From a virus, in IMG/VR virus record IMGVR_UViG_3300025127_006147, positions 1-64,000 of that record: DNA of 64,000 nucleotides; one strand, given 5' to 3'. The notes under the pieces are model-generated. The model saw only the letters and a list, made by a program, of their open reading frames with translations, searched no databases and had not been told where the DNA came from. Below, piece by piece: positions 9,327 to 41,582 of the stretch (position 1 is its first letter; each line of letters starts with the position of its first letter). The position numbers and the translations under genes are program-made.

Positions 9327-9350
9327 ATTAAAATTATAATTAAATTTATT

Positions 9351-13285: not shown

Positions 13286-13289
13286 TTTA

Positions 13290-13913: not shown

Positions 13914-13932
13914 GAGTCAAATAATTTATTGA

Positions 13933-14580: not shown

Positions 14581-14588
14581 GATTGTAT

Positions 14589-22897: not shown

Positions 22898-23068
22898 TTA
22901 TAGTTCAAAACCAAGATTTAATACCATAAATCTAAATTTAGAACATTTGTCAGTACTACACGGACAAATCTTAACTTCAAATACAGTTAATTTACCTAAT
23001 CTAAAAGTTAAACTATATTTTTCTTTTTTATTTCCACTTTTCCAGGAATTAATCCAATCTATTTTCAT
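22898..23068 (-). CDS. Small hypothetical protein (56 aa), below the ORF-track cutoff
   Basis: Manual translation MKIDWINSWKSGNKKEKYSLTFRLGKLTVFEVKICPCSTDKCSKFRFMVLNLGFEL*; starts 2 nt after the upstream stop and fills the gap. Confidence 0.65.
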   Translation of the reverse strand: MKIDWINSWKSGNKKEKYSLTFRLGKLTVFEVKICPCSTDKCSKFRFMVLNLGFEL

Positions 23069-23070
23069 AA

Positions 23071-24195: not shown

Positions 24196-24247
24196 AGTTT
24201 CTTTTTATCTATAAATATTAATGCATTCATTAAATATTTATTTATGT

Positions 24248-27040
24248 ATGGGACCACAGAATTTAAATAACTATTATTTCAATAAATTAGACGCTAGACT
24301 AGATTATAGCAGCTACTATGACATATTTTTAACGTCTGATGAGCGGGATTACAACCGAGAAGTTGTATTTTCTCCTTATCTTATTTGTGTGGGTGACCAC
24401 ATTAACGCTTATCTAAGTGGCAATACTTGGTGTTCAGATTGTTTACCTCTTTGGATTGACTTAAATAATCCCCAGTCCAGTAGACAGTTAGACCCCTACT
24501 TATGTACAGAATATAATGAAAATAATACTTTATTGAGTTTACCTTATTGGTGTTCTGCTAGACCAAATTCAGGTGACACACGATGTACGTGTCCTAAATG
24601 TGAAAACCGAGAATTTACAGGAAACACTTCATTCATAGAATCTATATGTGATGTTGGTTTAACTGGTGTAGATAATGGTTTGGTACAATATATGAGTGGA
24701 AACACTACCGAATATGATAAGTGTAAGGTAGAATTTATTAAAAGCACAGCATTTACAGTAACTATAAGTGCAGAAACAGGAACAAACTGTGTCGGCACAA
24801 TTCGTAGTCTTATAAGTGGCTTTATACCAGTTACCGTGTTAAGTTCTATAGTGGGTGGTAGCATCCCTTTAAAATATCCATGTACTGGAAGTACTACATC
24901 AGTTACTAGTGGGACCACAATAAATTGGAATAATTTTTATGATTCAGCAGTGGGTATACCTGCACTCGAACCTGATATGGCTTTATCTGGATGTTGTTTT
25001 TTTACCGCTGGTCAAGATGGTGGACAAGGAGACGGTTATAATTTAAATTTTACTAATTTTCAATCAACCTTTAGTGGGGAGACATTTACGGTTGACCTAA
25101 TTACCGAAAAGGGTTATTGGCAAGCGCCTTGTCAACTAGAGTCTATAAAATTGTGGACAGACATGCCAGACCAATACAAATGGGACCATTTACATTATGA
25201 TAGAAGATTTAAAATGAAACAAGTTACTGGTTTAACTCACCAGTATAGTTACGGTATCGAATCTGTTTCGGGAGGTCCAGAAGGTTATTACAACAATCTT
25301 AGGGGTGGATTCTACCAAGGATTCTATGAACTTTATGGGTATCCGTACCAAGTTTTACCAGAAAGAGTAGAGTGTGGTTGGACCGTAGAAAGTTTATTAA
25401 AATTTGATGTTAAATGTGTGACAGAATGTATAATATCTGGGACACAAACTTTAAATGATAAGTACCCCAACAATAAAGGTATATACTTCTATATGGGAAC
25501 ACGAGCAGAAAATAAATTCCATAATTATTATTCTGCAGAAACCCACCTACAAACTTGTGACCAAGGAGACTTTAGTTGTTCTGGGATACCAACACCAATT
25601 ATAACTACAGGTACAACAGGTCACTGTGGAACCTTAGTTAATGTCATAACATCAACATACGATGAAAAAATAGATTCTTTAAGTAATGCTTTTGCTTTGA
25701 GATTAACCGACGACGGAAGAGTAGGATATAGGGCTTTATATTACACGGGTAACTGTATAACCACATATTCTGAAAAAAAGGTTTTAGATTGTGAAACAAA
25801 TGAGTATTATGTTGTTGAGGATTGTGTGACTGGTTTAACCTATAGTTCAGGTTACACCGTAGTAGAAAAATATAGTAATATTGTTTGTGGTTTAACAGGT
25901 TCTACATTCGTAAATACTTGTCCTTGGTTATTGGTAAGTGCGAGGTTCCAAAGAGATTATTGTTATGAAGGTTGTGATTTAGAAAATGAGGGTGGGGTTA
26001 ATGATTTAATAGATATTCCAGTAATGGATACACCAGGTTACATAGATTCAGGTTTAAATAGTACCTCAACTACCTTAGTTAGGGAAGCTCCATTAATGCC
26101 TGGATGGCAAGATAATGGGAATAAAGTTGTTGTAACAGGTCAATACTTGGGACCGGGTCAAATTGCTACAGGGTGTACGGAAACTGAATGTTGTACTGGT
26201 TGTACTAAAACTGATTGTCATACTTGTGGCCCAGCTACTGGATGCACTACTAATTACACAAAATTAGTTGAAAAAATAAAATTTTCTAAAAAGTGGTCCG
26301 ATGAAAGATTTTTAAGAAAGGGAACTTTAACAATTTTTGTTAATGGTAGACCAGTATTGACAGACCCAGATTTTGAAGAAATAATACCTAGAAGACTTAA
26401 CACAGAAAAACAAAAACAGGTTGGTGTGCCATTTAATATCTCTTGGGGTGGTGGAACACAGGGTCTAATAGATAACCAGACATTTTCTGCTGACACTAGT
26501 GGAAACACCATAACTTGTCCACCTTATGTGCAGGACCCAGCAGATTTAGGGTTGTTAATAGAAAAGAATTTTGCGGGAACCTATATCGGAGGAATATCCC
26601 AATTAAGATACTACATAAGGCCGTTGGGTGTCGATGAAATATTTCATAATTTCTTGGTTAATAAAGACCGATATGATTTAGTTGATTGTGCTGGTGGTTG
26701 TACCAATGGTTGTGGTCCTTGTCCCGCTATAATAATACGTGACTGTGACTCATTAGATATCATTTTAGATTACGCTATAGGTCAAACTAGCACATCAGTA
26801 GACAGTTTATCTCAATTTATTGTGTCCCCAGAATATACATCAGTTAGGTTTACAGGAGTTCTTGTAGATAATGTTGTAAGTTATAGTATTAGGTTAATTG
26901 AAAACATGGGTACAGGAAGTGGTTCTATAGTCACCACACCATTTTTAGCTACACCCACAGATGTAATACAGGTTGAGATAATAAAATTTGATGCAACTAA
27001 AGAAGCAAAAGTTACCATTATAGGCAACTTAACTAAGTAA
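24248..27040 (+). CDS. Large Cys-rich virion protein with LamG/concanavalin-like segments
   Basis: About 40 Cys by manual count and many [S/T]GxT motifs; LTIFVNG and IGGISQLRYY are LamG-like. ATG 24248 (MGPQ) preferred over 24221 because TATTTAT lies at 24235-24245. Confidence 0.65.
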   Translation: MGPQNLNNYYFNKLDARLDYSSYYDIFLTSDERDYNREVVFSPYLICVGDHINAYLSGNTWCSDCLPLWIDLNNPQSSRQLDPYLCTEYNENNTLLSLPYWCSARPNSGDTRCTCPKCENREFTGNTSFIESICDVGLTGVDNGLVQYMSGNTTEYDKCKVEFIKSTAFTVTISAETGTNCVGTIRSLISGFIPVTVLSSIVGGSIPLKYPCTGSTTSVTSGTTINWNNFYDSAVGIPALEPDMALSGCCFFTAGQDGGQGDGYNLNFTNFQSTFSGETFTVDLITEKGYWQAPCQLESIKLWTDMPDQYKWDHLHYDRRFKMKQVTGLTHQYSYGIESVSGGPEGYYNNLRGGFYQGFYELYGYPYQVLPERVECGWTVESLLKFDVKCVTECIISGTQTLNDKYPNNKGIYFYMGTRAENKFHNYYSAETHLQTCDQGDFSCSGIPTPIITTGTTGHCGTLVNVITSTYDEKIDSLSNAFALRLTDDGRVGYRALYYTGNCITTYSEKKVLDCETNEYYVVEDCVTGLTYSSGYTVVEKYSNIVCGLTGSTFVNTCPWLLVSARFQRDYCYEGCDLENEGGVNDLIDIPVMDTPGYIDSGLNSTSTTLVREAPLMPGWQDNGNKVVVTGQYLGPGQIATGCTETECCTGCTKTDCHTCGPATGCTTNYTKLVEKIKFSKKWSDERFLRKGTLTIFVNGRPVLTDPDFEEIIPRRLNTEKQKQVGVPFNISWGGGTQGLIDNQTFSADTSGNTITCPPYVQDPADLGLLIEKNFAGTYIGGISQLRYYIRPLGVDEIFHNFLVNKDRYDLVDCAGGCTNGCGPCPAIIIRDCDSLDIILDYAIGQTSTSVDSLSQFIVSPEYTSVRFTGVLVDNVVSYSIRLIENMGTGSGSIVTTPFLATPTDVIQVEIIKFDATKEAKVTIIGNLTK

Positions 27041-27045
27041 AAAAC

Positions 27046-27053
27046 TATTTATA
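27046..27053 (+). promoter_or_regulatory. Putative late promoter TATTTATA
   Basis: 12 nt upstream of the fibre gene. Confidence 0.6.
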
Positions 27054-27065
27054 AAATAAAAAAAT

Positions 27066-29150
27066 ATGTCTTGTAAATGTAAAAATATTATAGAAAACTT
27101 CCAAGGAGGAACAATTCCTTTAGATACCATATTCAATGGAAACGTTCAAATTTGTGGTGCTGGTAAAACTTTAAAGGTAGAAAATATAATAGGTTGTTCT
27201 CCCACAACTATAGGGGCAGAGAGTGGTTGTACTTCTGCTACCACTACAGTTTTAATAGTTAGTGGTAAAACTAATTTTGGTTGTGATATTAATATTGCAA
27301 ATGGAGGTGGAATATTTTCAGGTGGTACAAATTTATTAGATATTTTTTCCACCACTACCTCATCAGGTTCCACAGGAGGAGGAACCTTTACTGGAAATAC
27401 TTCAGCTACCTGTATTAATGAATTATGGGTTTCTAATATTTCTGGATGTAGTCCAGTTACTATCGGAACAGAAGCAGAATTTTCACAAGACGTGTCGGTC
27501 TCACAATACATCAGACATACAGGTGATGCTGACACACATATTCAATTTTTAGATAATAAACTTCAGTTACATGCTGGTAACATACCTTTTATTCAACTTG
27601 ATAAAGATGCAGCAACACCTTACCCTCTTACAATTAATCATGGTGGTAATAGAGTTAACTTTAGGGTTCTAGATAAAGATAGTAACCTACTTTTAAAAAC
27701 CGATTCTGAAGCATCTAAGGTAAATTTATACCATGCTGGTAATATGAAATTAGAAACACAAATCGGAGGTATTGATGTAATAGGTGAACTTAATGTGACT
27801 AGTGGTTTAACTGTAACGGGAGACACTATAGTAAAGGGGGGGAAAATATTACTGGATGATGGTGATGTTAGTAATAACTATGCTGGATTTGGTAATAATG
27901 ATGACCTAAAAATATTCCACAATGGAGGCCATTCAGTAATAAGAGAAACAGGAACAGGAAACCTATACCTACAAAGTGATAATAATGTCATAATTTCTAA
28001 GGATTCGGCTACAGAAACTATGATTAAGTGTATTGCCGATGGAGCTGTTGAACTCTACCATAATAATGTTAAAAAGTTTGATACGGGTAGTCATGGTGTT
28101 GATATAGTAGATGAAGCACACATAGAAGGTGAGACTCCACACCTAACACTTAAAAGGACTGACAACGCAAATGTTCCTAGTCTACGTTTTAAAGGCAGTG
28201 GTGGTACTATAGGTGCAAGTATTGATTTTGACGGTACAGCAGGCAGTTCCAATGAACTTATATTTAAAACTTTTCCAGGACTTACACTTACAGAAAAATT
28301 TAGAGTTACATACACTGGAGCAAAAGTTTCAGGTGAACTTAATGTGACTAGTGGTTTAACTGTAACAAGTTCAGGCACAAATACTTCAGATACGGTATTT
28401 TTAGTACAAGATAGTGTCGGTAATCATATCATAGAAGGTTTAGATACTGGACAAGTTCATGTTGGAGACTTAGTTAATAGTGCCCTACCAACAAATCCAA
28501 CACTTATGATTGGTGCGGGTAAAACACCAAACGATAGAGGTTCGTTAGCCTTTACTTCTTCAGGTATAGGTATCGGGGGAGATAATGATGCAACTGGAGA
28601 TTTTCTACACTTTCTTTTACCAGGAAGTGATGATAGTAGATGGAGATTTGATACTAGTTCCGCTTTTGGTTTTACCTTAATAAGTAGACAAAGTAACGCT
28701 TTTGGTTCGGGTGCGGGAACTAGAAGTAGTATTTACACTAGTAGGACATACGGTATAGATTTTTTACTCGGTTATTCAAGTGGCCTAGGTGTTACCGATA
28801 CTGTCGGATATAGATTTAATACTAAAGATAGTACTAGTGCGGGTGCAAATGATATAGAAAGGTTTGTTATTGAAAACGGTACGAGTGAAACTAAATCTTA
28901 CTTTGATAATATTAGTGTGTTGGGTGTTGGGACACCTAATCCTGACACTAACGTTAAAGTACACATTAGTGGAGATACTTTAATAAGTGGTAGTTTTACC
29001 GCAAGTACCATGACACTTAAAAATGTCCCCGCTTTTCAAGATGAAGCAAATGCTGCACTTGGGGGACTCACAACTGGAGACGTATATCAAACAACTGGAA
29101 CTGGACCCTCTCCGTTAAATGTGGCGGGAATATTAATGATAAAACAATAA
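27066..29150 (+). CDS. Tail fibre / fibre-like virion protein
   Basis: Gly/Thr-rich beta repeats, e.g. GNNDDLKIFHNGGHSVIRETGTGNLYL and GAVELYHNNVKKFDT, typical of phage fibre modules; TATTTATA 12 nt upstream. Confidence 0.72.
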   Translation: MSCKCKNIIENFQGGTIPLDTIFNGNVQICGAGKTLKVENIIGCSPTTIGAESGCTSATTTVLIVSGKTNFGCDINIANGGGIFSGGTNLLDIFSTTTSSGSTGGGTFTGNTSATCINELWVSNISGCSPVTIGTEAEFSQDVSVSQYIRHTGDADTHIQFLDNKLQLHAGNIPFIQLDKDAATPYPLTINHGGNRVNFRVLDKDSNLLLKTDSEASKVNLYHAGNMKLETQIGGIDVIGELNVTSGLTVTGDTIVKGGKILLDDGDVSNNYAGFGNNDDLKIFHNGGHSVIRETGTGNLYLQSDNNVIISKDSATETMIKCIADGAVELYHNNVKKFDTGSHGVDIVDEAHIEGETPHLTLKRTDNANVPSLRFKGSGGTIGASIDFDGTAGSSNELIFKTFPGLTLTEKFRVTYTGAKVSGELNVTSGLTVTSSGTNTSDTVFLVQDSVGNHIIEGLDTGQVHVGDLVNSALPTNPTLMIGAGKTPNDRGSLAFTSSGIGIGGDNDATGDFLHFLLPGSDDSRWRFDTSSAFGFTLISRQSNAFGSGAGTRSSIYTSRTYGIDFLLGYSSGLGVTDTVGYRFNTKDSTSAGANDIERFVIENGTSETKSYFDNISVLGVGTPNPDTNVKVHISGDTLISGSFTASTMTLKNVPAFQDEANAALGGLTTGDVYQTTGTGPSPLNVAGILMIKQ
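27782..27817 (+). repeat. 36-bp perfect direct repeat, copy 1
   Basis: AGGTGAACTTAATGTGACTAGTGGTTTAACTGTAAC, identical to 28331-28366. Confidence 0.92.
28331..28366 (+). repeat. 36-bp perfect direct repeat, copy 2
   Basis: Identical to 27782-27817; both encode GELNVTSGLTV. Confidence 0.92.
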
Positions 29151-29178
29151 AATCGGTATTTATAACTAAAACACACAC

Positions 29179-29553
29179 ATGGAATTTTTTATAAGAAAAG
29201 ACTCATTAGAACCAGTATTAAAAATGCAATTAATACAAGATGGTAGAAACGATTTCAGAAAGTTTTACCAAGGTTTAGAAAATGCTATGTTAAGTTTTTC
29301 TATGAAAAAGGTAGATACTGGTGAGTACGTAATTTTAAATAAAGCTGCTGGTATCGTACAAAAGACACAGGTAGACCCAATCAACGACCCCGAATATTAT
29401 ATATACTACAGATGGCAACCAACAGACGTAATGGAAGAGGGAAGATATCAAGGTCAGTTTTTAATCGAATTTTTAACAGACGGGACCCAGTTAGTGGCTC
29501 CAGTAAGAGAAGATTTATATATCAATATTCAAGAAAGTTTTGGAATTATTTAA
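29179..29553 (+). CDS. BppU N-terminal-like (Ig-like) virion protein
   Basis: FFIRKDSLEPVLKMQL..YYRW..GRYQGQFLIEF pattern; TATTTATA at 29157-29164. Confidence 0.55.
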   Translation: MEFFIRKDSLEPVLKMQLIQDGRNDFRKFYQGLENAMLSFSMKKVDTGEYVILNKAAGIVQKTQVDPINDPEYYIYYRWQPTDVMEEGRYQGQFLIEFLTDGTQLVAPVREDLYINIQESFGII

Positions 29554-29554
29554 A

Positions 29555-29583
29555 TTGACATCTCACAAATAGTTTCTTATATT
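29555..29583 (+). promoter_or_regulatory. Host-RNAP-type promoter upstream of DNA polymerase
   Basis: TTGACA-N17-TATATT. Confidence 0.6.
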
Positions 29584-29651
29584 TTAATTAATGTTAAGTA
29601 AAATTCACTAATAGAGTGAAGCTAATATTACAAACGAAAATTATTATATAC

Positions 29652-32363
29652 ATGAAACCTACACAAGAAGAAATCCAACAATTTTTAGAAGGGAGTGACC
29701 CAGAAAAACACATAGTAGCGGTAGAATATGACTATCGTAGCAGTTCTATATTTAAAATCAAAGAAGACCCAATTAATGGTAAACAAATAGTTAAAGATAC
29801 TTTCGTACCTTTTGCTTGGGTTGGAGACTTAAGACCTTACAATTTTTATTCTAATAGTAAAGCTAGACAAAAAGAAGCTATGAGTAAGCATGGTATTCTT
29901 ATAGAAAAACTAGACAACCATAACCAACCAAGATTAGTAGAAGGATTAAATTTTATAATTAAAACTACTAAAACATATCAAAACCTAGTTTCATTTTTTA
30001 GAGAAGGTGGTGTAAACCCTTGGGGAGAAAATACTAGGTCATCAATTATTATACTTAGTCCTGTAGAACAATATTTAATTCAAAAAGAAAAAAGACTGTT
30101 TAAGGGTTTTGAAGATTATAACGATATCCATAGATTAGTTTTCGATATTGAGACTACCGCACTCAGACCTTCTGATGGTATGATATTTTTAGTAGGGATA
30201 TTAGATAATAGAGGCAATAGTGAAATATTTTATGCCCATGATGATGAAAGTGAAAGACAATTAATTATTAATTTTTTTGAAACTATTAATAGAATTAGAC
30301 CTACCATAATAGGTGGTTATAACTCCGCGTCCTTTGACTGGGAATGGATGTTTAAAAGAGCAGAAATATTAGGATTAAACATAAATGAAATTTCACATAC
30401 ACTACATCCAAATATTAATATTAGAAGAAAAGAATCTATACTTAAGTTAGGTGCAGAGATAGAAGATTATATGTCTACAAATATGTGGGGTTATAATGTT
30501 ATTGATATTGCACATGCGGTTAGAAGAGCACAAACAATTAATTCTGACATTAAGTCTTGGGGACTTAAATACATCACACAATTTATTGGAGCAAATAAAG
30601 AAACTCGTGTATACGTACCTGGTGACAAAATATCCTCGATATATGAAGAGAATGAAGACTATTATTTTAATCCAAGAACTGGAAAATATAAGTTAAGAAA
30701 TACAGAAGGGTTAGAAAATTTATTACAGAGACACCCAAACGTTTACGAAGAAGTTAATGGACAATTTATAATTAAAAAATATCTTGAGGGTGATATTGAA
30801 GAAACACTAACCGTTGACGAGGAATTTAACCAAGCTTCATTCTTATTGGCTTCAATGGTACCAACTACCTATGAAAGGGTGTCTACTATGGGAACCGCTA
30901 CACTATGGAAAATGTTGATGTTGGCTTGGTCATACAAACAAGGTTTAGCTATACCTAAAAAAGATGAAAAAAGACCTTTTGTTGGTGGATTGTCAAGATT
31001 ACTTAAGACTGGTTATTCTACTAATGTACTTAAACTGGACTTTAGTTCACTATACCCTTCAATACAATTAGTACATAAAGTTTTTCCTGACTGTGATGTT
31101 ACAGGTGCGATGGAATCTATGTTAAAATACTTTAGGGACACTAGAATAAAGTATAAAAAATTAGCTGCAGAATATTATGGTGTAGACAATAAAAAATCAT
31201 CATCTTATGGTAGAAAACAATTACCTATTAAAATTTTCATTAACTCGATGTTTGGTTCTTTATCCGCTCCTCAGGTTTTTCCTTGGGGTGAAATGGATAG
31301 TGGTGAAATGGTGACTTGTACAGGAAGACAATATCTAAGACACATGATTAGGTGGTTTATGGAACGTGAGTATTCTCCTTTAGTATTGGATACTGATGGT
31401 GTAAACTTTTCATCACCAGAAGGTGTAGAAGAACGTCTTTACATAGGTAAGGGACATAATGAATTAGTGGTGGAAGGTAAGGAATATAAAGGTGCGGATG
31501 CAGATGTAGCTGAATATAATGATTTATATATGAGAGACGAAATGGGTCTAGATACAGATGGTACTTGGCCTTCTTGTATAAATGTAGCTAGAAAAAACTA
31601 CGCTCTTTTAACAGATAAAGGAAAAGTTAAATTAACAGGAAACTCTATTAAATCCAAAACATTACAGGGATTTTTGGTTGAGTTTATAGACGAAGGTCTA
31701 CAAATGTTGTTAAAAGGTGACGGTAAATCTTTCATAGAACACTATTACTCTTACGTTGAGAAAATTTACAACAAGGAAATCCCACTATCTAAAATAGCTA
31801 ATAAATCTAGAGTTAAATTAACTGTCGCGGAATACAAAGAAAGAGCTAAAAAAGTAACCAAAGCTGGAAACCCTATGTCTAAAATGGCACATATGGAATT
31901 AGTTTTAAAAGAAAATCTTAGAGTTAATTTAGGTGACACTATCTATTACGTTAATAACGGAACGGCTATGTCTCACGGTGATGTACAAAATAAAAAATTA
32001 AAAGATGGAACTAAAGAAACTATATTAAGATGTTACAGAATTCCTGAAAAAGACATAGAAGAAAAACCTGAGATGTGTGGAGACTACAACGTACCAAGAT
32101 ATATGAACACTTTTAATAAGAGGGTTGAACCTTTATTGGTGGTTTTTAAACAAGAGGTGAGGGATAGTTTAATTGTGAATAAACCAGAAGATAGGCAATT
32201 TTTCACGACTAAACAATGTGAGTTAATAAATGGTTTAGCTAGAAAAGAAGGAGACCAAGATGATTTAAATGAAGTTTTATCATTGTCTGATGAAGAAGAT
32301 GTCTTCTGGGATAAAATGGGTCAGGACCCAGAAAAATTTCTAGAACCTCTAGGAATTTTTTAA
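29652..32363 (+). CDS. DNA polymerase family B
   Basis: FDIETT (ExoI), YNSASFDW (ExoII), LDFSSLYPSI (motif A), KIFINSMFG (motif B), LDTDG (motif C). ATG 29652 (MKPTQEE) preferred over the track's 29616. Confidence 0.95.
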   Translation: MKPTQEEIQQFLEGSDPEKHIVAVEYDYRSSSIFKIKEDPINGKQIVKDTFVPFAWVGDLRPYNFYSNSKARQKEAMSKHGILIEKLDNHNQPRLVEGLNFIIKTTKTYQNLVSFFREGGVNPWGENTRSSIIILSPVEQYLIQKEKRLFKGFEDYNDIHRLVFDIETTALRPSDGMIFLVGILDNRGNSEIFYAHDDESERQLIINFFETINRIRPTIIGGYNSASFDWEWMFKRAEILGLNINEISHTLHPNINIRRKESILKLGAEIEDYMSTNMWGYNVIDIAHAVRRAQTINSDIKSWGLKYITQFIGANKETRVYVPGDKISSIYEENEDYYFNPRTGKYKLRNTEGLENLLQRHPNVYEEVNGQFIIKKYLEGDIEETLTVDEEFNQASFLLASMVPTTYERVSTMGTATLWKMLMLAWSYKQGLAIPKKDEKRPFVGGLSRLLKTGYSTNVLKLDFSSLYPSIQLVHKVFPDCDVTGAMESMLKYFRDTRIKYKKLAAEYYGVDNKKSSSYGRKQLPIKIFINSMFGSLSAPQVFPWGEMDSGEMVTCTGRQYLRHMIRWFMEREYSPLVLDTDGVNFSSPEGVEERLYIGKGHNELVVEGKEYKGADADVAEYNDLYMRDEMGLDTDGTWPSCINVARKNYALLTDKGKVKLTGNSIKSKTLQGFLVEFIDEGLQMLLKGDGKSFIEHYYSYVEKIYNKEIPLSKIANKSRVKLTVAEYKERAKKVTKAGNPMSKMAHMELVLKENLRVNLGDTIYYVNNGTAMSHGDVQNKKLKDGTKETILRCYRIPEKDIEEKPEMCGDYNVPRYMNTFNKRVEPLLVVFKQEVRDSLIVNKPEDRQFFTTKQCELINGLARKEGDQDDLNEVLSLSDEEDVFWDKMGQDPEKFLEPLGIF

Positions 32364-33221
32364 ACCATCAGAAGAAAGTATAAACCAGTTAGTGTTGTCC
32401 GATAATACCTCAATACTACTTTGTGGTCCCATATTAATTTCTTCCCACTCACCGTCTATTTTACCAGATTTTGTTTTTACTGTAATATTAGCCATAGATT
32501 TAATATAAAAACGGTTAAGGTTAGTATCATTAAGTGTGATGGTTAAATCTTCTGTAGCTATAATATATCTTGTATTAAGAGTAGTGTAGTTTGAATTTAT
32601 ACTTACGGGGATATTCTCTATATTTTCAACTGTCTTCTCAACCACAGGGATTTTACCCTGTTTTAATACAGCAATTAATGCTATAGTAAGTAGTTTATAG
32701 TTTATACCATCAGGTTCACCGTTTTCATCATAAATTACAAAATCTTTAAGACCTACGGAATCTACTTCCTCAGCAATTAATCCTACTGAAGATTTTCCAT
32801 TATTTTTCCATTTAAATTTTACTGGTGTTAATTCTAAAATAGAATTCAATTCAGTAAGATTTATTGGTTTTACATCTTTTTTATATTTTAAAGATGAAGC
32901 TACTCTAAAAACTTCGTTAGTGGACACATCTATTTCTAAGTCTGTCCCAGTACCTGTTGGGATTAGGTCTGAATTAATCTGTATAGCTGACTTACCAAAA
33001 GTTAAATCTGGGTCTAACCCCATAGAAAAAACCGCTGTATTAGCTGATGTAGATGTAAAATTAAAATTATAAGTAGACGAATCACCAGATTTACTAATTA
33101 AAACATTTTGTTGTAATCTACTACTACCAGACATTTCTGCAGTTGTATCACAATTTTGATAAACTTGTCTAGAAAAATCTATTTTAGTTCTTAGTCCGAA
33201 TCCTGGATAACTATATCCCAT
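32349..33221 (-). CDS. Fibre/spike-associated protein with an internal intramolecular chaperone (peptidase S74) domain
   Basis: SSLKYKKDV..ILELTPVKFKW..GLIAEEV..GINYKLLTIALIAVLK, followed by about 95 further residues. Confidence 0.72.
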   Translation of the reverse strand: MGYSYPGFGLRTKIDFSRQVYQNCDTTAEMSGSSRLQQNVLISKSGDSSTYNFNFTSTSANTAVFSMGLDPDLTFGKSAIQINSDLIPTGTGTDLEIDVSTNEVFRVASSLKYKKDVKPINLTELNSILELTPVKFKWKNNGKSSVGLIAEEVDSVGLKDFVIYDENGEPDGINYKLLTIALIAVLKQGKIPVVEKTVENIENIPVSINSNYTTLNTRYIIATEDLTITLNDTNLNRFYIKSMANITVKTKSGKIDGEWEEINMGPQSSIEVLSDNTNWFILSSDGLKNS

Positions 33222-33222
33222 A

Positions 33223-34344
33223 TTATATTACATTATAAGGGTCCTGGAATGGTCTGTATCCCAAGGCTTTATTAAGATTTTCAGCTACTAGAGCTTTTCT
33301 TTCCATTAATTTATCTTCTCTTAATCTTTCTAATCGTCCCATTAACTCCTCTGATAATTTTGTTTTTTCATCTTGTGATTCACTAAACAACGACGAATAA
33401 TCCATAGTCAATTCACTATCAGGAACTTTTAAAGCTCCACTAAATTTACCTCTTACTCTACCTAAAGTTTCTTTTGCGAGAGCGGTAAAATATCTCCTAA
33501 CCCAAGCTCTAGCTGGAGAATTTAAGTCAATCCATTCTATATCACTAATAGGTGCGTCGGAAGGAACTCTAATAATGTCTTTATTTTGAGCTAAACAATC
33601 ATTCACATTATCATCATTAACATCATAATACCAATACCAAACACGAGCTCCATTTATTTCAGAGTTTCCAAAATCAAATTTACCACCAGGTACATTGTAC
33701 AAGTGAAGATATCTAGTACCTTCTGGTCCAGCTGTAACTCTATATGTTAAGTCAGAACCTATAAGTCTATTTTTAATATTCCTATCTTGCATTCTTAAAA
33801 GAATATCATAAGCCGGCATCATGTAATATGAACCAACAATACCCATTTGTGCAAAACCACCAGCTCCACCCATACCAATTCCACCAAAACCACCAAACCC
33901 ACCTAAGAATGGGTCCACCAACATTTCATTTAATTCTGGTCTATTAAACCAAAGAATTTCGTTTATTTCCCTTCCTGCTGGAATTTGATATATTTGTTGG
34001 TTAGTTACTAATTCAACGTAGTCTTTTTTAAGAATCCACGGACCCATTGTTTGTAAACCAACAATTTTAGAATAAGCATAAGTAAACGAACTTTCCCAAT
34101 CCAAACTACGGGTAGTATATGCTCTAGCTAAATCAGCCTCGTCTACATTAATACCGTCTAATGATGCCCATTGGTTTTCAATTAACCAGTCGTTAACATA
34201 CATAGCATAGTCTTGTATCGCTATTTCTAATAACGAATCCAACATATCATCCTCTAATTCTACACCGACAATCGGTGCACCTAGTTGATGCCTAAGTTGG
34301 GTATATAGTCTCTGTTTGTCTATTACTGAAATATTAGTTGGCAT
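33223..34344 (-). CDS. Neck protein (T4 gp13-like head-tail adaptor)
   Basis: LRHQLGAPIVGVELEDDML..W(V)RRYFTALAKETLGRVRGKF; TATTTATA at 34357-34364 (minus strand). Confidence 0.8.
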   Translation of the reverse strand: MPTNISVIDKQRLYTQLRHQLGAPIVGVELEDDMLDSLLEIAIQDYAMYVNDWLIENQWASLDGINVDEADLARAYTTRSLDWESSFTYAYSKIVGLQTMGPWILKKDYVELVTNQQIYQIPAGREINEILWFNRPELNEMLVDPFLGGFGGFGGIGMGGAGGFAQMGIVGSYYMMPAYDILLRMQDRNIKNRLIGSDLTYRVTAGPEGTRYLHLYNVPGGKFDFGNSEINGARVWYWYYDVNDDNVNDCLAQNKDIIRVPSDAPISDIEWIDLNSPARAWVRRYFTALAKETLGRVRGKFSGALKVPDSELTMDYSSLFSESQDEKTKLSEELMGRLERLREDKLMERKALVAENLNKALGYRPFQDPYNVI

Positions 34345-34382
34345 AATGTTTTTCTATATAAATATTACAAGTTATGTTACTT

Positions 34383-36143
34383 TCAATTATTATGTAACTC
34401 ATTAAATAATTCTGTCATAATATCTGTGTCAGGATGAGAAGAAATATCACCCATAACTGTATCGATAACGTTTTTTTTCTTTTGTAATATATTATATATA
34501 ATTCTTTCTATAGTGTTATCGAACGTTGGGTAAAAACATGAGACGTTTTTTTTCTGACCAATCCTAAAAGCTCTATCTTCAGCTTGTGAATGGTCTGAAG
34601 GAACAAAACTAAGGTCATTCATTATCACTGCCTCCGCTGAAGTTAATGTTATACCCACACCTCCCGCTTTTAAGTTCGATATGAATATTTTCACATCAGG
34701 ATTATTTTGGAATTCGTCTACAGATTTTTGTCTATCTTCTTTAGACATTTGGCCATTTAATATTACAGAGTTATTTGGGTAATGGGAATGTAACTCCATT
34801 AAAGGGGAGGTAAAGTTAGTGAAAACAATTACTTTTTTATCTTGTTCTAAAATATCATTTATTATTTGTCTAGTGTGTACAATCTTACTTGAAGCTATAA
34901 TTTGTCTAACCTTAGTTAGTTTAGCTAAGTGTATGGTTATACTTTCGTTTTGATTTTCATCAGACCAAGACAAATATTCTCCCATTTCTTTTTCATATTC
35001 TGAAGAACTTAATTCTAGATAAACTGGTGTAATAATTTTATCTGGTAAATCCAGTACATCTTCTTTTAATCTTCTAGTAATTTTGTCTTGGGTCCTGTCC
35101 CTTAATTCTTCTAAATTAGAAGCTCCACTAACATTCCATATTTTCCTACCGTTTGGTCCTCTGAATTGTCTACCTTCACAATATCTACTAACATAGGTTA
35201 TCCAGTTGTTAGCCACCCTACTTTTTACCAATTTTAATAAATTATAATAATTTATTGGTCTAGATGTCATTGGTGTTCCAGTTAGTAACCACACCTTACC
35301 TAATTTATTAACTATTTCATTAATAATTTTTGTTCTTTGTGCTTTGGGATTAGAAATGTAGTGAGCTTCGTCTATTATTATTCTTTCAATACCAGAATCT
35401 AATAAGGTTCTAATTGAATCATTTTTAAGTGAATGAAAATTTTTTAAAATATCGTAATTTACTATAATAAATTTACCTTCTTTCCATTTTTTACCTTCAA
35501 CAATAACAACCTCTTCATCTGTATAATTTTCTATTTCTCTTTTCCAGTTAATTTTTAGTGATGCTGGACAAACTATTAATGTACGTTTATTGTTTTCTAT
35601 TATACTAGCGAGAACAGCCGAAGTAGTTTTACCCAAACCCATATCATCAGCTAAAATATACATATCGTTTTTTAATAATGATTCTATAGCTGGGATTTGA
35701 TGTTCCATAGGTGGCCTATGTGAAAAGGGAGTATAATCTATTTTAATTTTTTTATTGGTGGATGGAACTACTTGAGACTTGGGTATCCAAAATGCATAAA
35801 GATTTTCCGAATCTATTACCTTACCCCAAATATGATATGATTTGTCACCCTCTACTAGTATTTTCTCAACCCATATCTCTGTTGGTGCTTTTGGTAGTAA
35901 TTTTTTTTCTTGTAGTTGTTCTGAAAGGTAAGGGTCTATTTTTACTTTTTTTCTAGCTACCTTAGGTATAATATTGTGATTATTTAATACATAGTCCGCC
36001 TGATTTCTAGTTAGATTAAAGTACTTACTTTTAATTTTTTCTTTTAAATCTAATATGAAATTATTAGCTCCACTATATGTGGAGAGTATGTTACGAGCTT
36101 CAACTTCCGGTATTTTTATTTCCACAATATGATAATTATCCAA
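34383..36143 (-). CDS. SNF2-family (SMARCAL1/HARP-like) helicase
   Basis: LADDMGLGKT, CPASL, DEAH, LTGTP, GGVGITLT, QAEDRAFRIGQ. Confidence 0.93.
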   Translation of the reverse strand: MDNYHIVEIKIPEVEARNILSTYSGANNFILDLKEKIKSKYFNLTRNQADYVLNNHNIIPKVARKKVKIDPYLSEQLQEKKLLPKAPTEIWVEKILVEGDKSYHIWGKVIDSENLYAFWIPKSQVVPSTNKKIKIDYTPFSHRPPMEHQIPAIESLLKNDMYILADDMGLGKTTSAVLASIIENNKRTLIVCPASLKINWKREIENYTDEEVVIVEGKKWKEGKFIIVNYDILKNFHSLKNDSIRTLLDSGIERIIIDEAHYISNPKAQRTKIINEIVNKLGKVWLLTGTPMTSRPINYYNLLKLVKSRVANNWITYVSRYCEGRQFRGPNGRKIWNVSGASNLEELRDRTQDKITRRLKEDVLDLPDKIITPVYLELSSSEYEKEMGEYLSWSDENQNESITIHLAKLTKVRQIIASSKIVHTRQIINDILEQDKKVIVFTNFTSPLMELHSHYPNNSVILNGQMSKEDRQKSVDEFQNNPDVKIFISNLKAGGVGITLTSAEAVIMNDLSFVPSDHSQAEDRAFRIGQKKNVSCFYPTFDNTIERIIYNILQKKKNVIDTVMGDISSHPDTDIMTELFNELHNN

Positions 36144-36166
36144 CCTAAATATAAGTAAAAACTAGA

Positions 36167-36178
36167 TATTTATAAATA
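36167..36178. promoter_or_regulatory. Palindromic double late-promoter site TATTTATAAATA
   Basis: Reads TATTTATA on both strands, between the divergent helicase and gp14-like genes. Confidence 0.6.
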
Positions 36179-36191
36179 AAAAACGTTAACA

Positions 36192-36707
36192 ATGAGTGAA
36201 AAAAGAGTGCCCATAACGAGAGTAAATAAGTTTTTCGGTGATGAAGACTTCCGACTCCAGGAGTCCATGGGTATGGAATACCTACACGGCAATTTAAATT
36301 TTACTCTGGTTTTATATAGTGTAGATAGGGGTAAAAGTGTTACTGATGATGTTTACGGTGAAGCTGCTGAAGAAGAAATAAGATTTTTTCCTCCTGTAGA
36401 ATTTAAAGCCTTGGTTAACATTTCGGGCCCTACTAACGATAGTTATGCGGGTGGTCTAATGAGATATTTAGAAAGTGGTAATCTTACTATTAGTGTCTAC
36501 AAAAAAGAGCTTGAACAGTTAGGTATAGACATAAAATATGGTGACTACATAGGTTATCCAGAAACTGAAGATTTTACAAGGTACTTTACTGTATCTAATG
36601 ATGGTAGAGTAGCTGGAGATAATGCACACACTATCCTAGGTTATAAATCTTTTTATAGAACCATAACATGTGTACCAACAAGTGAAAATGAATTTAAAGG
36701 AATTTAA
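36192..36707 (+). CDS. Neck/head-closure protein (T4 gp14-like)
   Basis: DDVYGEA..FFPPVEF..GDYI; position next to the gp15-like gene; TATTTATA at 36167-36174. Confidence 0.65.
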   Translation: MSEKRVPITRVNKFFGDEDFRLQESMGMEYLHGNLNFTLVLYSVDRGKSVTDDVYGEAAEEEIRFFPPVEFKALVNISGPTNDSYAGGLMRYLESGNLTISVYKKELEQLGIDIKYGDYIGYPETEDFTRYFTVSNDGRVAGDNAHTILGYKSFYRTITCVPTSENEFKGI

Positions 36708-36709
36708 TT

Positions 36710-37810
36710 ATGGGTAAAATAAATAAAAAAATTAAAAAGACACTTAACATGTATCCAGTGGTTAGAAATCAACCACAATATCCATCGGGTTATGATGGAT
36801 TATCAACGCCTAAAAGAAGAAAACAATTAGCTGAATTTATTAGTGAAGACGGTACATTTTTACCTAAGAGTGTTCTACACGCTGATTTAGATAAAGGTAT
36901 GTTAGATTTTGTTAAGGATAGACTTCAGATAAGTGTAAATGGTAAAGGAATTTCAATTGTGGACCAAATACTTACGATACAAAGGTGGGCAGAATTTTCA
37001 AATACTTGGTCATTTAGTGATAAGGATTTAAATCCTGAAATTCCGTTTTTGGTAACTGTAAGAAATCCAGCGGTACAGTACGGTTCCAACCCTTCTTTAA
37101 TTTATACTATACCAGATAGAAGAACTTTTCACTATGCTAAAGTTCCTACCTGGGATGGTCAAAGAAAAGGAATGGATTTATATAAAATACCACAACCAGT
37201 TCCTGTAGACATAACCTATAACCTTAAAATAGTATGTAATAGAATGAGGGAGTTAAATCAATTTAATAAAGTTATGATGCAAACTTTCACATCTAGACAA
37301 GCATATACGTTTGTAAAAGGACATTACATACCTATTATTTTAGAAACACTTAGTGATGAGAGTCAAATTTCAGATAATGATAAAAGAAAGTTCTACACAC
37401 AAGACTATCAATTACAACTTCAAGGATTTTTAATAGATGAAGAAGAATTTGAGGTAACTCCAGCAATTACAAGAAAATTATTAGTTTTTGAAACAGATTT
37501 AAAAACTAAAAAACGTGACGCAGGCCCAACTAAAGAAAACCCACTTAGTATTTTTACTGAAACTTTTACTATTGACGCTGGTGTAACCACACTTACCATA
37601 CCTTTTGAATTTGACGCTAATGTTCAGGTTACTGAAACTACCAATAATAATAACTATACTGTAGGTATTGTGATTGACGGAGTTACTGAATTAGTTAGTG
37701 ACGAATTTACAACATACTATGTGTCTAGAGGTCAGAGTTTAAGATTTAATTTAACTCCATTAGATGCGTCAGAACCCCAAACAATTACTTTACAAACAAA
37801 ATTTATTTAA
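36710..37810 (+). CDS. Tail sheath stabiliser/terminator (T4 gp15-like)
   Basis: PQPVPVDITYNLKIV..ELNQF segment; lies upstream of the tail sheath. Confidence 0.68.
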   Translation: MGKINKKIKKTLNMYPVVRNQPQYPSGYDGLSTPKRRKQLAEFISEDGTFLPKSVLHADLDKGMLDFVKDRLQISVNGKGISIVDQILTIQRWAEFSNTWSFSDKDLNPEIPFLVTVRNPAVQYGSNPSLIYTIPDRRTFHYAKVPTWDGQRKGMDLYKIPQPVPVDITYNLKIVCNRMRELNQFNKVMMQTFTSRQAYTFVKGHYIPIILETLSDESQISDNDKRKFYTQDYQLQLQGFLIDEEEFEVTPAITRKLLVFETDLKTKKRDAGPTKENPLSIFTETFTIDAGVTTLTIPFEFDANVQVTETTNNNNYTVGIVIDGVTELVSDEFTTYYVSRGQSLRFNLTPLDASEPQTITLQTKFI

Positions 37811-37968
37811 AGGTCTCCGTAAATGTCTTTTTTTGGTGAACATTTTTCTTTTATCAACTTCTCGACAAACTGAAACATTTTTAAACCGTTTTTACTACAA
37901 TAGTCTTTTAATAGTTTGTGAACCCCACTATCTATTTTAATGTTTTTTATGTTTTTAGGGTAAGGCAT
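37807..37968 (-). CDS. Small ribbon-helix-helix-like DNA-binding protein (53 aa), below the ORF-track cutoff
   Basis: Manual translation MPYPKNIKNIKIDSGVHKLLKDYCSKNGLKMFQFVEKLIKEKCSPKKDIYGDL*: an alternating beta strand followed by two helices. Confidence 0.62.
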   Translation of the reverse strand: MPYPKNIKNIKIDSGVHKLLKDYCSKNGLKMFQFVEKLIKEKCSPKKDIYGDL

Positions 37969-38102
37969 AACCATAAGTATGAAAAAAGTATGTTTTTTTT
38001 CTTACAAGAACTTGCAATAGTCAAAAATGTGGTAATCTTTTGGGATTAGAGATAATATTTATTAATAAAATAAAACCAAAAATATAAAAAAAATTAATTA
38101 AC

Positions 38103-41100
38103 ATGGCAACAGACGGAAAAGTTTTTGTATCCCCAGGGGTATACACGTCAGAGAAAGATTTAAGTTTCGTAGCACAAAGTGTGGGAGTAACAACACTTGG
38201 TTTAGCTGGTGAAACTCTTCAGGGTCCTGCTTTTGAACCTATTTTCATAAGTTCATATGGAGAATTCCAAACCTATTTCGGTTCATTAAACCCAGAAAAG
38301 TTTACGGAAACACAAATCCCTAAATACGAATTATCATATATAGCAAAAGCATATTTACAACAATCTAATCAGTTATTTGTGACTAGAGTATTAGGTTATT
38401 CTGGATATGACGCTGGACCTTCTTGGTCAATAACAACAATAGGTAACCCTGATTGTGAAACTATTAGAACTCAGTGTGCTGACACTACAAGTACAGTATA
38501 TAGTGCTTCTACATGTAACACTGGAACGGCTTTTGAGTCAACTAGTGGTTCTACTGCTGTGGTAAATAGTGGTTCTGTTGGGTTATACTTTACTGGAGGG
38601 ACTGACGTTTGGACTGATTCATCCACAACTGTTAAACCTATTGATTCTTTACCTTGGCCTATTTCTGAAAAAATAAATGAAACTTTAACAAAAACAGATG
38701 GTAGTAGTACAACTATTTCTGCCGAGTTAGATAGTATGTTATCTACATATTACTCTAGTTTATCACACATAGCAGTATGTGCAACTGGAGGTACCCCATG
38801 TTTCTTACCTATGACAGGAGGAACTAGTGTAGAAAAAGCTTTTGGTTGTAACTATGATGGAGATACGGTTTCAGGAAATACATTATATGAAGGAACATAT
38901 TTAGAAAATGCAGGAACACCAGCATCTTCAGGATACACTTACCAGTCTAAATTTAGTGGTATAACAGAAACACAAGTTTTAGGTTCTTCTTGTAACCCTA
39001 AACCTTCAGTATTCTGTAATGACATTAACGACCCTTGGTTATACGGATTCTTTGACCTAGTTCCTGGAACAGACCAGTATACTGGTTTCTCAATGAGTAT
39101 CGGTATCAATACTAATGATGTTTTAGATATTAGTACATCCGCTCAAACAACATTATATTCTGGAGATTCTGCTTTAAGATTCTCTTACACATTATATACA
39201 GGAGAAACTTTCTGTAACTACAACGATTTAGTAGTCGCAACTTTCCGTTCAAGAGGTGTAAGTACACAAAATTCAGGTGGACCTGTTTATCAAGTAACTG
39301 GTGGAACAGATGTTACAATGGTTTGTACGGGAGACACTTTCTCCAAAGTAAATACTGACCCATTTGCCACTTTTGGTATGGATGTTACAGATAAAGACGG
39401 TGATTCATTTAGATTTGAAACTTCTATGTCTCCATCATCTAAAGACTTTGTTAAACGAGTATTTGGGGTGGCACCGTTTGATAAACAAATGGAACAAGTT
39501 CCAATCTTTGTAGAGGAAGCTTATCCTAACATGTTAACATACGCTTATAAGAAGGGTTACATTAAAGGATTAAACTGTAGTCTACTAGATTTACCTTCAT
39601 TTAGAGATTCTAATAATACTGGAACTATTGGTTTCTACCAAGAACAATGGCAAACCCCAGTAACACCTTATGTTGTTTCTGAACTAAGAGGTACCAAAGT
39701 ATATAAATTATTTAGATTTATATCTATATGTGATGGTAACGCAGCTAACACACAAGTTAAAATATCTATTGTTAACATTTCATTTGAAAGAAATGAATTC
39801 GATGTGTTAGTTAGAAGTTTCTATGACACAGACGCTTCACCAGTTGTATTGGAAAGATATACAAGATGTAGTATGAATCCTAATTTGAACTCTTTTGTTG
39901 GGGTTAAAATTGGTACCGCTAATGGTGAATATGAATTGAAGAGTAGATACATTATGGTAGACTTAGACCCAGAACAAGAGACTGACACTAACCGTCATGA
40001 TGCTGTTCCTTGTGGATTCGAAGGTTATGTGACTAGAAATTACTTAGGAGAACAAAGTCCTACATTATACTATAAAACAAAATATAATAAACCAGGTGAT
40101 ATAATCTGGAACCCACCTTTCGCTGTAAGTTCAACTGTGGATAACTCAGTGATAAGTGCGGGAGATAAAATTAGAAGAGTTTATTTAGGTATTTCTGATA
40201 CTGCAGCTTCAGCTTATGACGATGACTTCTTCCAATATAAAGGAAAACAAGCACCTACAGATAAATGTAATGATTTAGATGGTACAGACTGGAATTGTTT
40301 AACTCAAGGATTCCATATGGATAGTGGAGCGACTTGTGTAAATACTTTAGGTGAGTTATGTGTAACTACACTTTGTAAAAATTGTGGTACTGGAACAACA
40401 ACTGAAGACCAGTTCGCTGTTGGTGTAGCACCGTTTAGAAGTGAACCAACTAATTCACAGGACCCATACTACACATTACAGTCTAGAAAATTCACATTAG
40501 CACCGTATGGTGGTTTTGATGGATGGGACATTTATAGAAAATCAAGAAGTAACGGAGATAGTTATGTTAGAGGTAAATCAGGGTTCTTAAACGGAGCTTG
40601 TACTTCAACTACATTCCCTAACGCGTCTGGTGATGGTTCATTTAAACTATTATCAAGCACTCCTTGGGGTGAATCAGGATTCTTCGCAACAACTGACTAT
40701 TACGCTTATTTCTTCGGTATTAGAACATTTAGAAACCCAGAAGCGGTTAACATTAACGTATTAGCAACACCAGGTATTGACTATGTAAACAATAGTAACC
40801 TTGTAGAGGAAACAATTGACATGGTAGAAACTGAAAGAGCTGATTCACTGTATGTTACTACAACACCTGACTACAACTTGTTTGTACCAGGAGCTACGGT
40901 AGCGGCAAACATAATCCAACCTACTGAAGCGGTAGATAACTTAGATTTAACAGCAATCGATTCTAACTACACCGCTACTTACTACCCATGGGTACAGTAC
41001 AACGACCAAGAGAACAATACAAGAGTATGGTTACCACCTACTTATGATGTAATGAGAAACATTGCTTTAACAGATAATATCTCATTCCCTTGGTTCGCGT

Positions 41101-41582
41101 CCGCTGGTTACACTAGAGGTATTGTAAACGCGGTTAAAGCTAGAAAGAAACTTACTCTTGATGAAAGAGATACGTTATACGCTGGTAGAATTAACCCAAT
41201 CGCAACTTACTCAGATGTTGGTACTATTATCTGGGGTAACAAGACACTACAAAGTAGACAATCTGCATTAGACAGAATCAACGTTAGAAGATTGTTACTA
41301 CAGGCTAGAAAATTAATTTCGGCAGTAGCAGTTAAATTGTTATTCGAACAAAATGACGAACAAGTAAGAAACGAATTCTTAGACTTAGTTAACCCAATCT
41401 TAGACTCTATTAGAAGAGAGAGAGGTTTAACAGACTTTAGAGTTGTTCTTTCTGACGACCCACAATTGATTGACCAAAATACATTAGAAGGTAAGATTTA
41501 CATAAAACCAACTAGGTCTCTAGAATTTATCGATATCGAATTCTTAATTACACCTACTGGAGCATCATTTGAAAATGTATAA
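38103..41582 (+). CDS. Contractile tail sheath protein (gp18-like) with large insertions
   Basis: N-terminal SPGVYTSEKDLS; C-terminal WFASAGYTRG, RINPI, IWGNKTL, DRINVRRLL, RSLEFI. Confidence 0.95.
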   Translation: MATDGKVFVSPGVYTSEKDLSFVAQSVGVTTLGLAGETLQGPAFEPIFISSYGEFQTYFGSLNPEKFTETQIPKYELSYIAKAYLQQSNQLFVTRVLGYSGYDAGPSWSITTIGNPDCETIRTQCADTTSTVYSASTCNTGTAFESTSGSTAVVNSGSVGLYFTGGTDVWTDSSTTVKPIDSLPWPISEKINETLTKTDGSSTTISAELDSMLSTYYSSLSHIAVCATGGTPCFLPMTGGTSVEKAFGCNYDGDTVSGNTLYEGTYLENAGTPASSGYTYQSKFSGITETQVLGSSCNPKPSVFCNDINDPWLYGFFDLVPGTDQYTGFSMSIGINTNDVLDISTSAQTTLYSGDSALRFSYTLYTGETFCNYNDLVVATFRSRGVSTQNSGGPVYQVTGGTDVTMVCTGDTFSKVNTDPFATFGMDVTDKDGDSFRFETSMSPSSKDFVKRVFGVAPFDKQMEQVPIFVEEAYPNMLTYAYKKGYIKGLNCSLLDLPSFRDSNNTGTIGFYQEQWQTPVTPYVVSELRGTKVYKLFRFISICDGNAANTQVKISIVNISFERNEFDVLVRSFYDTDASPVVLERYTRCSMNPNLNSFVGVKIGTANGEYELKSRYIMVDLDPEQETDTNRHDAVPCGFEGYVTRNYLGEQSPTLYYKTKYNKPGDIIWNPPFAVSSTVDNSVISAGDKIRRVYLGISDTAASAYDDDFFQYKGKQAPTDKCNDLDGTDWNCLTQGFHMDSGATCVNTLGELCVTTLCKNCGTGTTTEDQFAVGVAPFRSEPTNSQDPYYTLQSRKFTLAPYGGFDGWDIYRKSRSNGDSYVRGKSGFLNGACTSTTFPNASGDGSFKLLSSTPWGESGFFATTDYYAYFFGIRTFRNPEAVNINVLATPGIDYVNNSNLVEETIDMVETERADSLYVTTTPDYNLFVPGATVAANIIQPTEAVDNLDLTAIDSNYTATYYPWVQYNDQENNTRVWLPPTYDVMRNIALTDNISFPWFASAGYTRGIVNAVKARKKLTLDERDTLYAGRINPIATYSDVGTIIWGNKTLQSRQSALDRINVRRLLLQARKLISAVAVKLLFEQNDEQVRNEFLDLVNPILDSIRRERGLTDFRVVLSDDPQLIDQNTLEGKIYIKPTRSLEFIDIEFLITPTGASFENV

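Follow-up and report, generated by a model that had tools for sequence, protein, structure and literature searches.

Why does a word of four amino acids recur in a Cys-rich protein, a fibre-like protein and the contractile tail sheath of one uncultured giant phage from the sea? The window analysed here (the whole stretch of 64 000 nucleotides) is the left 64 kb of the 194-kb virus record IMGVR_UViG_3300025127_006147, and in it Ser/Thr-Gly/Ala-x-Thr occurs at ~5 times its chance frequency in these three tail-associated proteins. A preliminary description of this DNA had proposed the narrower word [ST]-G-x-T as a candidate O-glycosylation sequon for glycosyltransferases (GTs) of the phage. The enrichment is real, specific and lineage-wide; the actual motif is hydrophobic-[ST]-[GA]-x-T, which is directional and takes only Thr at position 4. 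We read it as a short linear motif that selection maintains on tail surfaces which are probably exposed; its modification by O-glycosylation is tentatively the leading explanation, with a probability of roughly 0.4. Surface exposure, the modification itself, its sugar nature and the responsible enzyme are what we infer.

Motif excess in three window proteins

The three proteins, with the residues of their sites, are as follows.

24221..27040, plus strand: Cys-rich protein, fold unknown, 939 aa (930 aa from the probable start, ATG 24248); [ST]G.T at residues 66, 117, 133, 159, 222, 230, 285, 336, 463, 537, 543, 559, 650, 659, 673 and 760; [ST]A.T at 176, 183 and 438
27066..29150, plus strand: fibre-like protein, 694 aa, matching PHROG 13518, 29834 and 23731, all of unknown function; [ST]G.T at residues 53, 66, 85, 100, 109, 246, 251, 378, 429 and 635
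38103..41582, plus strand: T4-type contractile tail sheath with large inserted domains, 1159 aa

Expected counts were taken from 500 shuffles of each protein, and in a second test residues were shuffled only within 20-residue blocks. Proteins significantly enriched for the motif are called ‘hot’ in what follows. [ST]G.T was found 16 times in the Cys-rich protein against 1.6 expected (z ~12; block shuffle z 9.7), 10 times in the fibre-like protein against 2.1 (z ~5.5; block shuffle z 4.6) and 12 times in the sheath against 2.0 (z ~7; block shuffle z 6.2). Earlier manual tallies of at least 15, at least 9 and about 10 were slight undercounts.

The remaining 50 open reading frames (ORFs) of the window together hold 6 sites, with ~9 expected. 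Of these 6 sites, 2 fall in the 29 ORFs on the minus strand before 24221, sugar and nucleotide enzymes among them. The tail tube lacks the motif.

48479-48967: tail tube, 0 motif sites

Over the whole genome [ST]G.T is found 109 times against 43.5 expected, with the excess concentrated in about ten proteins. Six of the hot proteins beyond the three above are encoded in a block at 82887-110098, downstream of a baseplate-wedge-like gene at 74770.

Such counts might be an artefact of Ser/Thr/Gly-rich composition or of internal repeats: all three proteins are rich in these residues, and the repeat ELNVTSGLTVT occurs twice in the fibre-like protein. We regard this as very improbable. The composition-matched comparison that had been recommended leaves the excess standing under both whole-protein and 20-residue-block shuffles (z 4.6-12), and the large proteins at 52772 and 58341, equally rich in Ser, Thr and Gly, have 1 and 2 sites, which is at expectation. 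Variants of the word that share its composition are not enriched (see below). The DNA at 38 sites comprises 36 distinct 12-mers, and codon use at the sites is that of the gene as a whole; a DNA-level explanation is rejected on these grounds, and conservation is, as had been claimed, at the level of protein. A Pfam scan of nine motif-rich proteins for known repeat families gave only three matches, all sub-threshold.

Motif definition and specificity

A scan of residue pairs in the hot proteins, made without a preset motif, ranked SG, G.T, A.T, S..T and T..T at the top. This ranking is partly circular because the hot set was picked by motif count; scans of each position are less so. At position 1, Ser (5.8-fold) and Thr (4.8-fold) are enriched, with Asp at 1.0-fold and Asn at 0.5-fold. 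Position 2 takes Gly (5.2-fold) or Ala (4.5-fold). Position 3 tolerates every residue but Pro, with no preference for Asn, Asp or Gly. Position 4 is Thr (5.2-fold), with Ser at 1.4-fold, Val at 0.8-fold and Ile at 1.3-fold. The residue at position -1 is hydrophobic, chiefly Phe or Tyr, in 61% of sites against a background of 34%. Flanks scanned from -5 to +8 showed further enrichment only for Thr at +5 and, weakly, for Cys at +7; because the flanks are otherwise without preference, the sites are not copies of one domain.

In the hot proteins of this genome [ST][GA].T occurs 127 times against 26 expected, and the full hydrophobic-[ST]-[GA]-x-T 77 times against 8.6. The hot proteins of two relatives give 208 against 41 (genome G001) and 62 against 14 (genome G005). 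Neither the reversed word (36 against 26-27 expected) nor [ST][GA].S (24 against 20) is enriched. The same is true in the hot proteins of the N-glycosylation sequon N-x-[ST] (149 against 147.7) and of the Bacteroidota O-glycosylation sequon D-[ST]-[AILVMT] (47 against 41.2), and Asp is not favoured at position -1; the motif is distinct from the latter sequon, as had been stated at the outset. One conserved protein of ~390 aa, whose type is encoded in this genome at 82887-84494, shows Ser replaced by Thr, or Gly by Ala, and the reverse, at the same site, and the final Thr is constant.

A structural role, in which the word is a strand-exit cap or turn reused by beta-rich tail modules and fibre shafts with no enzyme to read it, seems to us somewhat less likely than the favoured account, and it is the strongest of the rivals considered. 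The alternation of the motif with Thr at +5 resembles an extended strand and speaks for it. The residue preferences do not: compared with the statistics of beta-hairpin turns (type I', type II' and type I with G1 bulge), they fail to match, in that Asp and Asn are not favoured at position 1, Ala serves as well as Gly at position 2, Asn, Asp and Gly are not preferred at position 3, and Ser, Val and Ile do not substitute for the Thr of position 4. Nor is there an extended context that would mark a shared module.

Sites in the tail sheath

The sheath matches PHROG 23 ‘tail sheath’ (E 9e-55), and its best Foldseek match is T4 gp18 (9mkb; E 3e-10); the Pfam matches, Phage_sheath_1 and Phage_sheath_1C, are both below curated cut-offs. 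It has the N- and C-terminal domains and the fold of a T4-type (gp18) sheath. Its sites fall in two segments.

38457..39383, plus strand: sheath insert, residues 119-427, with 10 of the 12 [ST]G.T sites (residues 148, 164, 228, 238, 257, 276, 285, 366, 399 and 409) and [ST]A.T at 134 and 346
40323..40400, plus strand: second sheath segment, residues 741-766, with SGAT at 741 and TGTT at 763

All sites are thus within residues 134-409 and 741-763, with none in 1-133, 410-740 or 764-1159; the last of these intervals covers the C-terminus, whose near lack of the motif had been noted before. The 80 homologous sheaths collected have a mean of 6.1 sites against 1.7 expected, and in the alignment of 81 the sites are confined to the insert or the second segment. 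The site at residue 741 is the most conserved (58 of 81 sheaths). Inserted domains of T4 gp18 point outward, and we count the avoidance of the conserved sheath core, with placement in the insert, in favour of an exposed recognition tag.

Equivalent columns of the sheath alignment differ without change of length: FTGCT/FTGCS, VSGLT/VDSLT, YSGVT/YSGVL and DSGAT/DKNAS. Single substitutions toggle sites with no insertion or deletion, which indicates that the motif is dispensable for the local fold and argues against the structural role. A predicted structure of the sheath (mean predicted local distance difference test score, pLDDT, 67.8) is weakly informative. In it the sites fall variously where strands end, in loops and in stretches modelled with low confidence, and they share no one conformation. 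Secondary-structure context differs among the better-modelled sites; 5 of 14 sites directly follow a predicted beta-strand that ends in a hydrophobic residue, as a strand-exit cap would. Mapping sites on AlphaFold models, with exposed loops expected, had been suggested as a check, and it bears on the sheath to this limited extent only, the model of the Cys-rich protein (mean pLDDT 47.5) being unusable for the purpose.

The Cys-rich and fibre-like proteins

The Cys-rich protein matches nothing in Pfam or PHROG. Its gene could start at either of two in-frame ATGs (24221 and 24248). The sequence TATAAATA at 24210-24217 lies upstream of both and TATTTAT directly precedes the second, which together suggest that the real start is 24248; the 930 residues given for the protein in the preliminary description correspond to this start. 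Other tail genes share the TATTTAT element: those for the fibre-like protein, the sheath, the tube and the baseplate have it no more than ~40 nt before their starts. It is found before the fibre-like gene (27066), orf124 (29179), orf171 (36192), the sheath gene, the tube gene and the genes at 50646 and 52772; the fibre-like gene also has the element TATTTATA upstream. The shared TATTTAT suggests that the Cys-rich gene is part of the same late set as the tail genes. From this element and from gene position we infer that its product is a surface virion protein. The ‘fibre’ label of the 694-aa protein comes likewise from gene position, along with composition.

All of the 36 homologues of the Cys-rich protein are Cys-rich (18-42 Cys), and they carry a mean of 15.6 motif sites spread over 79 alignment columns. 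Five homologues checked at ~40% identity have 12-20 sites each and hold 5-6 of the window protein's 19 sites in common with it. Taken with residue preferences unlike those of a beta-turn, this turnover of sites at kept density favours a recognition tag over an element of the fold.

Residues 650-680 of the Cys-rich protein (26169-26260) form a small repeat dense in Cys and Thr, with three TGCT words in ~30 residues, which loosely recalls disulfide-rich Thr-x-Thr beta-helix repeats. In the relative G014, which lacks a full Cys-rich gene, a 375-aa ORF on the minus strand (G014 248773-249900, equal to L297:8773-9900) fuses a Cys-rich-like segment (62% identity over 216 aa to the G001 homologue) to a homologue of the window's orf124; it also has a weak papain-like (Peptidase_C1) match.

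Distribution in the lineage

Comparisons were made with 80 sheath homologues, 85 loci anchored on PolB, and nine whole or large relatives; IMG/VR has more than 600 contigs with such a sheath. Hot proteins were found in G000 (this genome), G001, G004, G005, G007, G010, G011, G013 and G014, the whole relatives carrying 6-17 each. Genome totals, observed against expected, are 279 against 98 in G001, 261 against 111 in G013 and 134 against 70 in G014; with one low-complexity ORF left out, G005 has ~137 against 74. Across the whole lineage the motif occurs in proteins among which no similarity was detected. In G005 a 3313-aa ORF rich in Ser, Thr and Gly, on the plus strand (42567-52508, equal to L195:2567-12508), has 3 [ST]G.T words where ~98 are expected; a strict repeat may leave no place for the word, or else the ORF avoids it.

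No close cultured relative was found. The best match is Microcystis phage Mel-JY01, the nearest cultured relative by its sheath (30% identity). This phage carries four GT genes. Its first 100 kb, in which the genes for capsid, sheath and tube lie together with two large ones that directly follow the tube gene, have 45 sites against 42 expected and no hot protein among 95 ORFs. In T4, the virion proteins have 27 against 26 and the ORFs of 100 kb 39 against 36, with no hot protein among 90 ORFs. The motif is therefore a trait of the lineage and not a general property of fibres, and its lack of excess in T4 fibres and baseplate and in the tail proteins of Mel-JY01 speaks against a structural role.

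One apparent exception within the lineage was rejected. The 43.6-kb fragment G003 at first seemed a motif-free relative without the conserved GTs described below; its sheath is 100% identical to that of G010, which has hot baseplate and fibre proteins, and G011, of the same clade as G003, has the conserved GTs. A comparison of co-occurrence at the 85 PolB-anchored loci was also discarded, since the motif-poor flanks merely lack fibre genes and G005 encodes the 407-aa GT elsewhere. Among the relatives examined no genome was free of the motif and none was free of GTs.

Gene layout and sugar genes

The 194-kb record has a G+C content of ~30% and a genome completeness of ~61%. Genes at positions 1-24195 of the window are on the minus strand; among them are PhoH, a sigma-factor-like gene and genes for GDP-sugar enzymes. 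Seven ORFs of this part match GT families, and the span that they occupy, 2747-21413, stops 2.8 kb before the Cys-rich gene. From 24221 the plus-strand order is Cys-rich protein, fibre-like protein, PolB, sheath, and then tail tube and baseplate genes. Between the PolB gene and helicase genes, on the opposite strand, a 290-aa ORF (32349-33221, minus strand) combines a Peptidase_S74 domain (endosialidase intramolecular chaperone) with PHROG matches to tail-fibre and baseplate families and carries 0 motif sites. A major capsid protein was not found within the 194-kb record. The main features of the sugar island are as follows.

2747-3550, minus strand: GT2, conserved, 267 aa
3552-4646, minus strand: conserved 364-aa protein whose orthologues give a weak GT1 signal
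6253..15350, minus strand: island middle, without orthologues in G001, annotated with Pfam
16111..17649, minus strand: double GT2, conserved candidate enzyme, 512 aa, with Pfam Glyco_tranf_2_5 and Glycos_transf_2
20190..21413, minus strand: GT407, a conserved soluble GT-B (GT4/RfaG-like) and candidate enzyme, 407 aa, PHROG 7162 ‘glycosyltransferase’

The four conserved GT-type genes are common to G001, G005, G011 and G013. The island middle encodes a GDP-mannose dehydratase, a DegT aminotransferase, epimerases/reductases, GT10, GT2, GT11 and GT25 proteins and a methyltransferase. GT407 has its nearest ESM Atlas clusters among those named RfaG or GT family 1, with no Pfam match and no PDB sequence match; the double GT2 has no PDB sequence match either. 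An orthologue of GT407 in the record behind L191 (G008:C1:47892-49106) contains in-frame TGA and TAA stops.

Relatives carry another GT among their fibre genes. PF11397, of the GT60-like transferases, was found in 7 of the 9 relatives (G001, G003, G005, G007, G011, G013 and G014), where its genes adjoin proteins with Thr-Pro tracts; this pairing looks like a second, mucin-type candidate glycosylation system. Its presence among fibre genes makes protein glycosylation plausible in the lineage. In G014 a cassette beside the fibre genes holds the PF11397 gene with a UDP-galactopyranose mutase, an FkbM methyltransferase and a weak GT-B. PF11397 genes also lie beside DUF285-type proteins at L103:15490-16737 (plus strand) and in G003 (22583-24511, equal to L104:2583-4511, plus strand), and a 642-aa protein near the latter has long Thr-Pro tracts.

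Weighing the explanations

The account that we favour would run as follows. The lineage keeps hydrophobic-[Ser/Thr]-[Gly/Ala]-x-Thr under selection on the outward parts of tail, baseplate and fibre proteins, where a phage-encoded soluble enzyme would read it in the host cytoplasm and modify a hydroxyl residue, either the invariant Thr of position 4 or the Ser/Thr of position 1. The small Gly or Ala may give the enzyme access, and the preceding hydrophobic residue may mark the end of a beta-strand. Synthesis would begin with a conserved initiating GT, and the chain would then be lengthened by products of the island's swappable middle, the putative extenders being the fucosyltransferase-type GT10 and GT11, the GDP-sugar enzymes (possibly by a colitose route) and the methyltransferase. 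The tail would thereby acquire a coat of glycans that differs between strains.

Several observations weigh against it, and some of these favour the structural role instead. Those fibres of relatives that are richest in the motif have it within short shaft-like repeats such as ‘nltvTGNTnl’ and ‘ylplSGGTvTGDT’, recurring every 5-17 residues (51 sites in 855 aa; 24 sites in 405 aa); for this reason a structural role is a live rival. A few sites are invariant across families, in the Cys-rich family in 36 of 36 and 35 of 36 members. Sheath residues 430-740 (39390-40320) are also an insertion, and the motif occurs there in 0 of 81 homologues. Proteins outside the virion show no depletion of the motif; on this result avoidance of off-target sites was rejected.

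Other observations loosen the tie to the sugar island. G014 (257 kb, CheckV 100%) retains the motif and has six hot proteins although none of the island's conserved genes is present in it, neither the four of GT type (GT407, the double GT2, the 267-aa GT2 and the gene of the 364-aa protein) nor their two conserved neighbours; this counts against a simple model in which the motif is read by this island. Across the relatives the motif follows no single GT orthologue. PF11397 is absent from this genome's 194 kb by both hidden Markov model and BLAST searches. These neighbours, which lie between the double GT2 and GT407 (18626-19944, minus strand) and are co-conserved with the GTs, encode a dUTPase of 209 aa and a PolB-exonuclease-like protein of 229 aa, so the conserved GTs could serve DNA modification or some other target; a thymidylate-synthase-like hydroxymethylase, looked for as a sign of DNA hypermodification, was not found in the 194 kb of this ~61%-complete genome.

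The proposal of a recognition site for the GT block of the phage thus fares differently in its two parts. Sharp preferences, direction and turnover agree with a recognition site, and G014 tells against the tie to that block. In the suggested comparison of motif and GT cluster among relatives, sugar genes lie beside the genes for motif-rich proteins in every lineage genome examined, but no orthologue follows the motif.

The same tag-like evidence (preferences, toggling, direction and kept density) applies also to a reader that adds no sugar, through phosphorylation, acylation or methylation, through docking of an assembly chaperone or decoration protein, or through repeated weak binding to polymers of the host surface, and the want of a tracking GT orthologue leaves room for it. 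We think such a reader rather improbable, for no kinase, acyltransferase or other candidate reader was identified, and sugar genes are the only enzyme class beside the motif-rich genes in every relative examined.

Sheath residues 430-740 are conserved and well modelled (pLDDT mostly >80) and, unlike the flanking insert segments, motif-free.

Relation to known systems

Mycobacteriophage virions are reported to be O-glycosylated by phage-encoded GTs, with the glycans measured (Freeman et al. 2023, Cell Host Microbe 31:1216, cited in PMC12619734); the subunits of capsid and tail tube reportedly carry these glycans at their C-termini. The likeness lies in soluble GT genes of the phage's own near its structural genes, as in the window, and in a proposed glycan coat of the particle made in the host cytoplasm. 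The acceptor differs: here it would be a four-residue word in sheath inserts, fibres and baseplate, known from sequence alone, and the tail tube has no site.

Bacteroidota, the probable host phylum, use an O-glycosylation sequon that is likewise a short acceptor with Ser/Thr followed by a small or aliphatic residue, from which the present motif differs in its indifference to Asp before Ser/Thr. Bacteroidota O-glycosylation acts in the periplasm on exported proteins, and phage particles assemble in the cytoplasm.

The polypeptide alpha-GlcNAc-transferases of CAZy GT60 / PF11397 are a protein-directed family, encoded among the fibre genes of relatives as described. Their likely substrates are Thr-Pro or poly-Thr tracts, not [ST]-[GA]-x-T, and the gene is absent here.

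Also comparable are large aquatic T4-like phages with glycan (‘LPS / cell-wall’) islands, which are predicted to infect Bacteroidota, as here, and the ‘moraphages’, in which four core GT orthogroups are described and no acceptor motif is named (PMC12619734). Their sugar island, like the present one, is large and membrane-free, and its flanks are conserved around a middle that can be exchanged; the reports differ from ours in describing neither an acceptor nor a motif in virion proteins (PMC12619734). The moraphages may be this lineage or one near it. Full-text literature searches found no description of the motif.

A broader statement, which we put forward only as a possibility, is that widespread aquatic jumbo T4-like Bacteroidota phages use a cytoplasmic O-glycosylation sequon in exposed loops of their sheath, baseplate and fibre proteins, bearing strain-variable tail glycans made by the phage. 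Were the motif structural, it would mark a module peculiar to this lineage from which the decoration domains of fibres and sheath are built, and be of narrower interest. If it is such a sequon, phages would have with it their first acceptor code for virion glycosylation that can be read from sequence. If it is a modification site, a short tag read by soluble cytoplasmic enzymes would be a useful tool for glyco-engineering. Glycan-coated surfaces of uncultured phages would become predictable from sequence alone, and virion glycosylation in phages would no longer be confined to a few mycobacteriophages but would take in an abundant aquatic lineage, with a bearing on adsorption, host range, particle stickiness and recognition by grazers or immune systems.

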